Position numbers: made by a program. Positions 49,401-52,400 of a stretch of DNA of 64,000 nucleotides are shown in pieces. Source of the DNA: a candidate division FCPU426 bacterium. GTDB taxonomy: Bacteria > Oederibacteriota > Muellerivitia > Muellerivitales > Muellerivitaceae. How positions within the stretch are numbered: position 1 is the first letter of the stretch; each line of letters opens with the position of its first letter. The stretch covers positions 1,377,999 to 1,441,998 of the forward strand of contig CAVRAL010000001.1 in NCBI GenBank assembly GCA_963719085.1, in the 5' to 3' direction.

Positions 49401-52400
49401 ATTTTTCAGCGTAGAGGCGGCATTCTTTACGGATATGGATCTTGGCCATGGTCTTGGCCTTCTCGCCGAGCTTCTCCATCACCTTATGCTCGATCGGCAT
49501 CCCATGGCAGTCCCAACCCGGAACATAAGGCGCTTCGAAGCCTTTGAGCAAGCGGTACTTCACGATGATGTCTTTCAAGACTTTATTAAGCGCGTGCCCC
49601 ATGTGGATATCGCCGTTGGCGAAAGGCGGGCCGTCATGCAAAACATACTGGGGCGCGCCCGGCCGGGAAACGGCCCTGCCGTGAAAACCCCATTGTTCCC
49701 AAAGCTTGAGCCGCTCGGGCTCAGTCTGAGGCAGGTTGGCCTTCATAGGAAAAGAGGTTTGGGTGATGTTAAGGGTGGATTTGTATTCGGCCATGATTGA
49801 CCCCGTTTTTAATTAGGAAGAAGAAACGAGAGTCTAAATCATCTTAAAAAGGGAGGCAAGCCATAAAAGGCTTGGAATTAGGCGCCCGTTGGAAAATAGG
49901 AGGCCTCGCCGGAAACTCGAAGCACGCTGTTCTCGCCGCCCAACGAATCCTCTTCCCGGATCGGATTGGCTGGATCGGCGATCCATTCCACACCGTTGAG
50001 GACGAACTTATAGTGATAAGCCCCGGGATTCAGCGAGATGATGAATTGGTAAGACCCGTCCGCCTGACGCTGCATGTAGTCGGCTTCCTTGTCCCAATTG
50101 TTGAAACTGCCCACCAGCGCCACCTTGGAAACTTCCCGGGACGGCTTGTAGGAAACCGGAATCTTGATCAGAGGCTCGAACGCCACCACCTGGTTGCGGC
50201 CCCGGGACTTGGCTTGGTACAAGCTCTTGTCGGCTTTCTTGATCAGGTCATCCTCAGTGGCCGCGTCCACCGGAAAAGTCGCCACACCCGCGGAAACCGT
50301 GATGTGTTTCAGGGGCTGGGTTTCCATGCGGGGAAATATCCCTTGCTCAATTTTAAACCGGATCCGGTCCGCCAACTCATGGGCGCTGCGGCGGCTGGCT
50401 TCGGGCAGAATGATCACCATTTCTTCCCCGCCATAGCGGGCTACGATGTCCACTTCCCGCGCCTCTTCTTTGAGGATGGCGGCGATCCGTTTCAAGACCT
50501 CGTTTCCCGCCGGATGGCCATTGGTGTCGTTGTATTTTTTGAAGTGGTCGATATCAAAAATAATCAATGAGAGCAGGCGGTGGTATCGGTCCGCGCGGAT
50601 GCGTTCTTCCTTCAACCGATCCAGGAAATAGCCGAAGTTATAAAGCCCCGTCAACCGGTCCGTGATGGCCATCTGGCGGGTCCGTTCATAAAGAAGCGCG
50701 TACTCGATCGCCAGCACATCTTGATCCGAAAGATCCTCGTCTTTGGAGCGCATGGTATTCTCAAAAAAAACCAGTCCCAAGCGGTTCAACAACAGGGAAA
50801 CCTGATTCAGCCCTTCCAAAAACGGAGGATCGGTTTTGGACCCTTGAGGCGCCGAGCCCATCAAATCTTTTAAAATGTCCTTTAAAAAATCCCGGGCGAA
50901 AAAAAGAAACAAAACCATTTCGGCGTGGGTGAGCTGGTTCTCCGTCTGAAGGGCGCGCAGCTGCGAAATGATGGGTTTGAGCCCCAGGTCGACCGCCTGC
51001 TCGGCGCTTCCCGTGCTTTGAACCAGGGAAACCAGGTTGAGGATCAGCTTCTTCACTTCGTTGAAAACCCGGGATTCGGGCGTGAACTGGCTCAAACGCT
51101 GGACCAAATGGCCCATGGCGGCTTGCCAGCGTTCCTTGAGAAGACCATCGTTTTTCTCGATGAACTCGTTTAAAAAATGATCGTCGCGCTGTTCCATTGT
51201 AGGGTCCTTCGCATCATAAGCGTCATTAAGATTGGAAACGGATCCGCCGATATAAATCAAGATAGGCTTGAGCCGAAGCGTCCCAGGAGAAATCCTGCTG
51301 CATTCCCCTTTGAACCAGGCCTTTCCATATTTTGGGCTGATGAAAGGTCTCCAATGCCCGCCGTACCGTCGCCAACAAGTCTTCCGTGACGTAGTTTTCA
51401 AAAACGAAGCCCGTCCCCTTTTTCCCGTCCAGGGACAGGTTTTCAATGGTGTCGGCCAAGCCCCCGGTTTTGCGCACGATCGGAACCGTCCCATATTTCA
51501 GGGCGATCAACTGGCCCAGGCCGCAAGGCTCGAACCGGGAAGGCATTAAAAATAAATCGCTCCCGGCGTAGATGAGTTTGGCCAGCCGGTGGTCAAACTT
51601 GAGATTGAGGGAAAACCGGTCGGGAAATTGGTCGCGCAATTCCTGGAACAAGGCGTGATAACGCGCGTCGCCCAGTCCCTGGATGACGAATTGGACGTTT
51701 TCAGCCAGCATCTCATTGAGGATCCCCGCGATCAGGTCCAGGCCTTTTTGATCGGCTAAACGGGACACCAAACCAATGACCGGGGTATCCTCGTTGAGCT
51801 TTAATCCCGTTTCCTTCAGCAGTTGACGCTTGGCGTCCTGCTTATGCTCGATATTTTTAGGCGTGTATTGGGAGGGGATTTCTTTATCCGTGCCCGGGTT
51901 CCATTCCCCATAATCGATCCCGTTCAAAATTCCGTGCAGGTCCTTCGCGCGGGACTGCAAAACCCCTTGCAGGCCATAGCCAAAATCATCCGTCTGGATT
52001 TCCTTGGCGTAAGTGGGTGAAACCGTGTTCAAGGCCGTGGAATAAACCAAACCCGCCTTGAGATAGTTCACTTGGTCGTAAAATTCCATTTTTTCCGGGC
52101 TAAACTCGTCCCAGCTTAAACCCGTCATCGGCAGCATATATTTGGGGAAAGTTCCCTGATAGGCCATGTTGTGGATCGTGAAAAGGGTCTTCATATGGTC
52201 AAAATGGGGTTGGGAGCGGTAAAGCTTTTCCAGATAAGGCGCCACTAGCCCGGTTTGCCAATCATTGAGGTGCAGGACATCCGGATACCAGTTGAGGACT
52301 TTGAGCATCTCCAGAACGGCCCGGGAAAAAAAAGCGAAGCGTTCGGCGTTGTCGGGATAATCGCCTTCCGGGGTTCCATAGAAGCCATCGCGGTCAAAAT

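Follow-up and report, generated by a model that had tools for sequence, protein, structure and literature searches.

A predicted GGDEF cyclase carrying a C-terminal AMPK-type glycogen-binding module, encoded behind glycogen synthase in a candidate division FCPU426 bacterium

In the stretch of 64,000 nucleotides that we analyzed (the window), we found a gene whose product, P0001, carries an AMPK-type glycogen-binding module at the C-terminal end of a GGDEF domain (Table 1). A literature search returned no GGDEF-CBM48 fusion of this kind. Judging from its sequence, P0001 may be a soluble and enzymatically active GGDEF cyclase that is expressed together with the glycogen synthase gene glgA, is tethered to glycogen, and reports glycogen status, a reading to which we give about an even chance. 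The host organisms are uncultured.

Table 1. Features of the glgA-cyclase locus, in window coordinates
Feature	Position	Strand	Details and basis
Sigma70-type promoter 5' of glgA	52835..52862	-	TTGACA-16-TATAAT; 12/12 consensus match, consensus only
glgA, GT5 glycogen synthase	51226..52782	-	518 aa; TIGR02095 580 bits (cut-off 328); Pfam Glyco_transf_5
Shine-Dalgarno-like AAGGA 5' of cyclase start	51205..51209	-	Read directly in the sequence
Cyclase gene (P0001)	49878..51197	-	439 aa; helical domain, signalling helix, GGDEF, CBM48
All-helical N-terminal domain	50748..51182	-	Residues 6-150; candidate RsbRD_N non-haem globin type
Signalling helix	50664..50726	-	Residues 158-178, ends at DxLT motif; identity profile, helix in AlphaFold model
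GGDEF domain	50178..50669	-	Residues 177-340; Pfam and fold match
Phe188, cross-dimer position	50634..50636	-	GacA Tyr304, Arg in canonical cyclases; aligned to 6d9m
Asn232, base-selectivity position	50502..50504	-	PleD Asp344, GacA Ser348; alignments
I-site RxxD	50448..50459	-	R247-D250 (complete site with R278, R201); alignment of 96 homologs
CBM48, AMPK-beta type	49914..50165	-	Residues 345-428; PDB sequence matches and fold
Terminator-like hairpin 3' of cyclase stop	49857..49874	-	Weak
ileS, downstream housekeeping neighbor	46951..49794	-	Pfam

The AAGGA lies 7 nt from the ATG of the cyclase gene. A longer frame of 538 aa, overlapping glgA, was not taken as the start: alignments with homologs begin near residue 7-9, and a ribosome-binding site precedes the internal ATG. 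The fusion proposed in an earlier note on this DNA is confirmed, with Pfam matching GGDEF at residues 177-336 (PF00990, E 4.7e-43) and AMPK1_CBM at 354-429 (E 1.4e-11, above the cut-off); the AlphaFold model of the protein has a mean pLDDT of 89. We compared P0001 with 96 homologs (clade 1) and with 68 proteins that have a different N-terminus (clade 2). Mean identity across the 96 homologs is 80% over residues 158-176, versus 72% in the GGDEF domain and 38% in the N-terminal domain, and the signalling helix would dimerize the chains.

The C-terminal module matches PF16561 (44.9 bits; cut-off 26.8) and falls just below the cut-off for PF02922 (21.3 versus 22.4). Among PDB sequences it matches AMPK beta glycogen-binding domains best (E 4e-7), and its fold follows that of AMPK 6b2e closely (Z 12.1, rmsd 1.5, 82 aligned). 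W368, K397, and W405, which correspond to AMPK W100, K126, and W133, are invariant in 96/96 homologs, as is N423; the W100 and K126 equivalents are also present in 65/65 clade 2 CBMs and in 23/23 CBMs among the further fusions listed. Mutation of the three AMPK residues lowers glycogen binding, according to passages of PMC2642990. Elsewhere the likeness is looser: the T148 position is Gly in 95/96 homologs, and L419, at the L146 position, is Leu in only 57 and Met in 22 of 96. An AMPK1_CBM match is present in 29 family genomes, and in every one of them the cyclase is the sole match. As in the AMPK beta glycogen-binding domain (1z0n, 6b2e), a CBM48 is thus joined to a signalling enzyme; the AMPK module localizes the kinase and allosterically inhibits it (PMC2642990, in the passages cited). 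Unlike AMPK, P0001 is a bacterial single chain and a cyclase rather than a kinase, has Gly for T148, and would be under a glycogen control that is only presumed.

The glgA gene ends 28 nt before the cyclase gene. Across 21 family loci, the best promoter match 5' of glgA was 12/12 in 13, 11/12 in 3, 10/12 in 2, and 8/12 in 3. The shared promoter and the short gap argue for co-expression, and the two genes probably form a two-gene transcript. Terminator-like sites such as the one behind the cyclase number 19 versus 15.5 expected in shuffles, and this hairpin is not clearly conserved among relatives. The next gene, ileS, probably does not belong to the glycogen-cyclase system.

The distribution given in the earlier note held up: near full-length orthologs occur in 25 of 30 other family genomes (three more are split at contig ends), and the GGDEF-CBM part occurs in eight genomes of families f10, f11, and f13 outside the host family. 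So did the order glgA-cyclase-ileS, with glgA the upstream neighbor in 27 of 29 family carriers, source genome included, and the two others breaking at contig ends; the previous figure of 17 of 31 genomes with the CBM gene beside glgA was an undercount. This synteny does not stand as independent support, because it comes from a single housekeeping block conserved within one family: smc-(GT9)-ftsY-STAS-5'-nucleotidase-glgA-cyclase-ileS-lspA-lgt-rluD. Adjacency to glgA was seen in 0/8 carriers from other families of the phylum and in 0/4 loci from the family of a Polyangiaceae-labelled genome (myxobacterial-type loci), and neither set has a conserved glycogen neighborhood; 20 glgA loci from other families gave no GGDEF or CBM match. 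From this pattern we conclude that glgA and the cyclase became linked once and that the arrangement has since been inherited. In the sister-family genome G001, glgA is followed directly by ileS and the cyclase is absent there, so that the cyclase fills exactly the slot behind glgA. In genome G008, glgE and a GlgM-type gene lie directly upstream of glgA. A cyclase activated by a STAS protein, as in SiaC-SiaD, was set aside as a reading; the STAS gene adjoins ftsY also in G001, where the locus lacks the cyclase.

One could read the glgA position as an accident of a single insertion into a housekeeping block, with a CBM48 that binds maltodextrins, cyclic or other alpha-glucans, or merely aids folding. 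Conservation of the block as a whole from smc to rluD agrees with this, as do the clade 2 genes, which stand before a Cof-type HAD phosphatase in 7/8 genomes and by exbBD/GH116 in one, and the lack of a GH13 GlgB match in genomes G074 (one contig) and G071. We find this reading quite improbable, given the invariant sugar-binding residues, the argued co-expression, and the presence of glgA in 37/37 phylum carriers, 34 of them with GH13 glgB. As glgA is present in 89/99 phylum genomes, its co-occurrence with the cyclase says little.

P0001 resembles canonical cyclases (PleD 1w25, WspR 3bre/3i5c, DgcR 6zxm) in its GGDEF fold (Z 25-27; versus the WspR GGDEF, Z 27.2, rmsd 5.0, 184 aligned), its metal, phosphate, and general-base residues, its RxxD I-site, and its helix leading into DxLT; the domain also matches TIGR00254 (174.8 bits). 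The RYGGEE and RxxD (REVD) motifs of the earlier note could both be read directly in the sequence, and its description of an intact GGDEF domain holds for the catalytic and I-site residues and fails at two base-specificity residues. D215, N223, E258, E259, K330, and R334 are invariant in 96/96 clade 1 proteins and K220 is kept in 95/96; together they correspond to PleD D327, K332, N335, E370, E371, K442, and R446 (metal, phosphate, general base), with PleD residue numbers from published passages and an offset of 112 from an equal-length match. In clade 2, the metal, phosphate, and general-base residues are kept in 67-68 of 68 proteins. The motif reads GGEEM/L in place of GGEEF in 89/96 clade 1 proteins and GGEEF in 67/68 of clade 2. 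The I-site is equally conserved (R247 in 92/96; D250, R278, and R201 each in 96/96), its PleD equivalents being R359, D362, R390, and R313 (PMC12943098, in part).

The two departing residues lie in the base-reading pocket. Residue 232 is Asn in 96/96 clade 1 and 67/68 clade 2 proteins, at a position with a described role in base selectivity (passages of PMC6456294 and PMC9140294). Asp344 has been published as essential to canonical activity and conserved among strict c-di-GMP producers, and 4/5 canonical enzymes lost activity when it was replaced by Ser. At the cross-dimer position, the canonical Arg stacks on guanine and is present in 94% of cyclases (PMC6456294, in part); clade 1 has Phe in 94 and Tyr in 2 of 96, and clade 2 has Phe in 41, Tyr in 22, and Leu in 4 of 68. 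Unlike canonical cyclases, P0001 thus has Asn in place of Asp344 and Phe in place of the cross-dimer Arg, along with the GGEEM/L motif of clade 1 and a C-terminal CBM48. GGDEF-CBM48 is also found combined with EAL, GAF-GAF, a receiver, or a second helical N-terminus; three of these fusions have the canonical Asp, and a quick tree (117 rows) gave two Asn-type clusters, three unplaced Asp-type fusions, and open forks.

In having both specificity positions off Asp/Arg, an aromatic cross-dimer residue, and a retained I-site, P0001 resembles the Hypr cGAMP synthases (Geobacter GacA 6d9m, Bdellovibrio Bd0367, Myxococcus GacB). It might therefore be a glycogen-tethered but Hypr-like, promiscuous enzyme making 3',3'-cGAMP and/or c-di-AMP, in which Asn232 would read adenine or guanine, Phe188 would stack on either, and c-di-GMP would cross-inhibit at the I-site. 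Both Hypr-defining positions are changed together in clades 1 and 2, while 12/12 other GGDEFs with an intact motif in P0001's genome keep Asp. Among 305 non-fusion GGDEF domains, gathered by similarity to the P0001 family and with rows that are not independent, the cross-dimer residue is aromatic in 10/17 with Asn versus 11/283 with Asp. In GacA, changing the Tyr to Arg moves the product toward c-di-GMP (PMC6456294, in the passages cited), and Asn is as long as Asp, so Asn with GGEE would fit the published distance model. Yet the Hypr enzymes described so far pair Ser/Thr with GGDE[F/Y], unlike the Asn with GGEE(M/L/F) seen here, and our literature search found no paper testing Asn at the Asp344 position. 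The HD-GYPs are RxxK in 2/2 cases in P0001's genome and 2/2 in G004 rather than the cGAMP-specific RxxQ/RxxN, which none of 8 in G065 and G074 show where the motif is readable; and 3/4 myxobacterial-type loci have an EAL gene at a distance of about 5 kb or less, with EAL fused in P0125. On balance we regard a Hypr-like enzyme as unlikely. We consider cGAMP or c-di-AMP possible, and c-di-GMP the most likely product because of the RxxK HD-GYPs of P0001's genome, the EAL partners and P0125 fusion, and a separate CdaA-like candidate for c-di-AMP in P0001's genome (motif scan only).

The altered pocket could also mark a weak or silent cyclase acting as a c-di-GMP receptor: c-di-GMP at the I-site would control an adaptor that grips glycogen by its CBM48 and regulates or recruits GlgA. 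Plant PTST proteins, which combine a coiled coil with CBM48 and target starch synthase, offer an analogy. The conservation of the complete I-site, the inactivation of 4/5 canonical enzymes by Asp344 to Ser, GGEEM/L for GGEEF, and the probable co-transcription with glgA fit such a receptor. The adaptor would stand in for GlgC, described as the main control point in passages of PMC10395257; the canonical enzyme was found in 0/99 phylum genomes. We nevertheless think a receptor distinctly doubtful: the catalytic residues are near-invariant in both clades, whereas in degenerate GGDEFs such residues drift (as they do in two from P0001's genome), clade 2 keeps GGEEF, and carriers outside the host family are not beside glgA.

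P0001's genome encodes GlgA, GlgB, GlgP, GH57, and GDE_C. No GH13 GlgX was found in it, the single PF00128 match being GlgB, and the c-di-GMP motif ExR(x)6R is absent from the four enzymes scanned (GlgA, GlgB, GlgP, and one of three GH57 proteins), so that no local effector was identified. In both respects the genome differs from the Streptomyces system, in which c-di-GMP activates GlgX (passages of PMC9530166): there the messenger acts on a glycogen enzyme, and here the enzyme that makes the signal itself carries the glycogen-binding module. Cyanobacterial SbtB is another published link from a second messenger to a glycogen enzyme, and the literature states that how cyclase levels change glycogen in E. 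coli is not known. The genome has 12 PilZ matches. The GEMM-I riboswitch (RF01051) was found in 0/31 genomes, with the control likewise silent (0/14).

The N-terminal domain is probably of the RsbRD_N non-haem globin type. Pfam RsbRD_N (PF14361) matched 49/96 homologs at E<=0.01 (best 6.2e-10), two of them above the Pfam cut-off, and P0001 itself was unmatched. Like the RsbRD_N sensor domains (stressosome protein 3zta; pXO2-61 3pmc), it is all-helical, of about 145 aa, and has no conserved His; unlike them, it has a GGDEF and not a STAS domain as its fusion partner. Fold scores against RsbRD_N structures are middling (Z 7.6 and 7.0; for 3zta, rmsd 4.8 and 115 aligned) and unrelated helical bundles score Z 8.0-8.9, an Atlas score of 0.79 toward the type is a lead only, and Foldseek gave no match at E<=0.001. 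A haem globin sensor was ruled out, as no His column exceeds 41/96 homologs.

The sequence shows the domain makeup, an operon-like layout, and conserved residues at the catalytic, I-site, and sugar-binding positions; from these we infer the following mechanism for a glycogen-tethered cyclase. The helical N-terminal domain and the 158-178 helix would hold two chains together and so bring two half-sites into contact. The CBM48 would fix this dimer to glycogen or to branched dextrins, which would alter its activity or concentrate it; in AMPK, the CBM of the beta subunit likewise confers glycogen sensing. The main product would be c-di-GMP, made in a pocket with altered base reading, and the I-site would shut the cyclase off. 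The signal would run mostly from glycogen to the cell's c-di-GMP readers (PilZ) rather than to a known glycogen enzyme, with the N-terminal domain as a swappable second input. We favor this glycogen-tethered cyclase because the sugar-binding residues are invariant, the promoter-glgA-cyclase layout is conserved, and the cyclase is the sole AMPK1_CBM match, and also because of the G001 slot, the G008 glgE and GlgM-type genes, and the other GGDEF-CBM48 fusions. Against it count the replacement of Asp344 and of the 94%-conserved Arg, adjacency to glgA in one family only with glgA so widespread, the states of the T148 and L146 positions, and the negative outcome for a local effector (no GH13 GlgX in P0001's genome, no ExR(x)6R in four glycogen enzymes). 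Of the link between glycogen and c-di-GMP proposed in the earlier note, the glycogen-linked signalling enzyme is well supported by the CBM48 binding residues, the probable co-transcript, and the glycogen genes of the genome, whereas c-di-GMP as the product is not safe, since Asn232 and Phe188 replace the guanine-selecting Asp and Arg of canonical cyclases.

In the links published so far, second messengers act on glycogen enzymes; a cyclase equipped with a glycogen module would add the reverse arrow. If so, the cell would translate its carbon reserve straight into a nucleotide signal, in the manner of AMPK in animals. Nature offers, in the paired Asn/aromatic swap, a test case for base choice by GGDEF enzymes, and if that swap admits ATP, many annotated diguanylate cyclases would make another messenger. 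A bolder reading, which as a whole we hold tentatively and think improbable, is that Asn plus an aromatic residue defines a third GGDEF specificity class whose members, sitting on the glycogen granule, would make cGAMP or c-di-AMP. In a lineage without GlgC, they would be the bacterial equivalent of glycogen sensing by AMPK, and their messenger would be separate from the bulk c-di-GMP pool. P0001 is a candidate way for bacteria to convert glycogen stores into a second-messenger signal.

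P0001, the cyclase, lies where the earlier note had placed it, and Pfam again delimited its GGDEF and glycogen-binding domains as reported there; the ortholog counts likewise held. Domain content, residues and layout were observed directly. An AlphaFold model built from a 96-sequence alignment (homologs chosen from the 120 matches listed) had a mean pLDDT of 89 and matched solved cyclases (Z up to 27.2), and its last domain matched the CBM48s of AMPK, SNF1 and amylase (Z 12.0-12.7).

Position and domain architecture of the cyclase P0001 (gene in window coordinates, domains in residues)
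Feature	Position	Strand	Basis
Cyclase gene P0001	49878-51197	minus	ORF, 439 aa
GGDEF domain	177-336		Pfam, above cut-off
AMPK1_CBM	354-429		Pfam, above cut-off
All-helical N-terminal domain	6-150		AlphaFold model
Helix between N-terminal domain and GGDEF	158-178		AlphaFold model
C-terminal beta-sandwich	345-428		AlphaFold model

The N-terminal domain is probably of RsbRD_N type: this Pfam family matched 49 of the 96 homologs, P0001 not among them, and a separate model (27 sequences, pLDDT 78) resembled the stressosome protein 3zta (Z 7.6), with B12-binding caps and unrelated bundles scoring higher (8.0-8.9). Since no His is conserved in this domain across the aligned homologs, haem binding is, judging from sequence, unlikely.

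The solved sequences nearest to the P0001 CBM are the AMPK beta glycogen-binding domains. N423, which matches AMPK N150, is invariant in the aligned homologs. According to PMC2642990, the AMPK domain has been demonstrated both to bind glycogen and to inhibit AMPK, with contacts made by W100, K126, W133, L146 and T148. The equivalents of the first three (W368, K397 and W405) are invariant in 96/96 aligned homologs; the L146 position is occupied by Leu in 57 homologs and by Met in 22, and the T148 position by Gly in 95. AMPK1_CBM matches occur in 29 family genomes, and in every one of these the P0001-type gene is the sole match. Another phylum genome, G074, encodes three stand-alone AMPK-type CBM proteins of ~100 aa (C1:317301, 858619 and 998693) besides a fusion of clade 2, the GGDEF-CBM48 proteins with a different helical N-terminus.

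The active site departs from both known patterns. All metal, phosphate, general-base and I-site residues are kept in the P0001 family. Makers of c-di-GMP are parted from the cGAMP-making Hypr enzymes by Asp344/Ser348 together with a cross-dimer Arg/Tyr304 (PMC6456294 and PMC9140294; PleD numbering from PMC12943098, P0001 offset 112). Whereas PleD and other canonical cyclases pair Asp344 with Arg, and Hypr enzymes such as GacA pair Ser348 with Tyr304, P0001 combines Asn232 with Phe188. Among the 96 homologs of clade 1, the P0001-like proteins, the base-specificity position is Asn in all and the cross-dimer position Phe in 94 and Tyr in two; in clade 2 the former is Asn in 67/68 and the latter Phe, Tyr or Leu in 67. 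The other GGDEFs of the source genome with an intact motif retain Asp (12/12). In a biased sample of 305 non-fusion GGDEFs with related members, the aromatic residue accompanied Asn in 10/17 and Asp in 11/283. As read from these residues, the signature is neither canonical nor Hypr. A Hypr-like product seems unlikely. HD-GYPs of the source genome and G004, a second phylum genome, carry RxxK (4/4) and not the RxxQ/N of cGAMP-specific enzymes (bioRxiv 10.1101/600031), and putative EAL genes occur near three of the four myxobacterial-type loci, both of which we count for c-di-GMP. A search for the GEMM-I riboswitch (RF01051) gave no match in 31 genomes, and none in its 14 controls either. D344 is named essential in PMC7288161 and is replaced by Asn here, so cyclase activity may be lowered. 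That P0001 is a silent receptor acting on GlgA is quite improbable in our judgment, the catalytic residues being retained. We found no published test of Asn at this position in full-text literature, most subscription journals being outside reach.

The cyclase starts 28 nt past the end of glgA, and ileS begins 83 nt beyond it. A 12/12 sigma70 consensus stands 53 nt ahead of glgA, and the best matches at 21 family loci scored 12/12 in 13, 11/12 in three, 10/12 in two and 8/12 in three, which suggests that glgA and the cyclase may share one transcript. In 27 of the 29 family carriers the upstream neighbour is glgA, the other two being interrupted by contig ends. The pair lies inside a family-wide block (smc, ftsY, STAS, 5'-nucleotidase, glgA, cyclase, ileS, lspA, lgt, rluD) and is therefore counted as one event; in the sister-family genome G001 the same block has glgA immediately before ileS, a difference of one insertion or one loss. 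In G008, glgE and a GlgM-type gene stand just ahead of glgA, and G006 has two similarly sized ORFs at the corresponding place. The eight carriers in families f10, f11 and f13 have other neighbours (a Cof-type phosphatase downstream in seven; exbBD and GH116 beside one), and the flanks scanned around the four myxobacterial-type clade-1 loci held no glycogen genes, which disfavours a general link between glgA and the cyclase. That the CBM binds another ligand and the gene stands beside glgA incidentally is an explanation to which we give little weight, the contact residues W368, K397 and W405 being invariant.

Other features of these loci were recorded. The STAS anti-anti-sigma protein (116 aa, window 54543-54893, minus) keeps 67-93% identity among family members and 81% to its sister-family counterpart, values well above those of the adjacent genes. 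After ileS, lspA (lipoprotein signal peptidase) occurs as two tandem copies (46008-46950, minus), as in many family loci, versus one in the sister-family genome. The gap between cyclase stop and ileS in several of the loci L148-L164 contains a recurring element, roughly CTAAACATTT then TTTGATAAGCT, possibly the ileS promoter; in G004 (L162:10827-13785) three genes are inserted there, one for a class III nucleotide cyclase with dCache-HAMP-cyclase architecture and two shorter ones. Two myxobacterial-type genomes (L219:840-4830 and L220:6525-10668) share a cyclase-CBM gene, a GT2 glycosyltransferase on the opposite strand and an EAL gene, with DUF4159 farther along. An ORF of 407 aa (window 40226-41449, plus) begins like a signal peptide, matches nothing in Pfam and precedes a TPR protein.

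Of the 120 matches listed for clade 1, more than 100 are database proteins in which the two domains occur together; the clade is present in 4/121 genomes from the family of a Polyangiaceae-labelled genome. The clade-2 N-terminus is unrelated (no phmmer match between the two), and the CBM is present in 65/68 of its proteins, of which two bear a Planctomycetota label. EAL (P0125), GAF-GAF (P0149) and receiver (P0171) domains are also joined to GGDEF-CBM48. A quick tree built on 117 GGDEF rows put the clades in separate clusters (SH-aLRT 98 and 93), each with three non-CBM rows, and left three Asp-type fusions unplaced. Acidobacterial GGDEFs without CBM (L050:7611-8543, L053:1990-4146 and L065:3-512) group within clade 1 in that tree and carry Asn and Phe, two with a cNMP-binding domain; their product, too, may differ from c-di-GMP. 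Further Asn-type GGDEFs (P0130, P0167, P0188 and P0260) include tandem double-GGDEF proteins, two with GAF, and one GGDEF-PilZ fusion.

The source genome encodes GlgA, a GH13 GlgB, GlgP, three GH57 and one GDE_C, together with 15 GGDEF proteins and 12 PilZ matches; MalQ was not found in it. Across the phylum, glgA is present in 89/99 genomes, and canonical GlgC was found in none of the 99 (control 8/14). GlgC is described as the main control point, and Bacteroidetes also lack it (PMC10395257); glycogen control must here lie somewhere other than GlgC. GalU was not found in the 31 family genomes or in families f1, f2 and f10, GalT is present in 3/31, and the family GlgA may use an unusual sugar donor. 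The sole unassigned sugar-phosphate nucleotidyltransferases of the source genome (L190:4927-7425 and L191:5898-6929) are guanylyltransferase-like, one fused to a phosphomutase.

We therefore suggest, as the most likely reading and with about an even chance, that P0001 is an active cyclase that would be produced together with glycogen synthase, be held on glycogen and signal the glycogen state as c-di-GMP; its dimerisation, control by glycogen, product and target are what we infer. Local signalling and SbtB are treated in PMC10118264. In Streptomyces, GlgX is activated by c-di-GMP (PMC9530166), the messenger acting on a glycogen enzyme, whereas P0001 is a candidate for the reverse direction, from glycogen to messenger. 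In the full-text literature searched, with most subscription journals outside reach, we found no report of a GGDEF or diguanylate cyclase fused to a CBM48-type or AMPK1_CBM (PF16561) module. Cyclases of this kind, predicted from sequence in hosts that are all uncultured, would bring a known enzyme family a new input, together with an unexpected active site.
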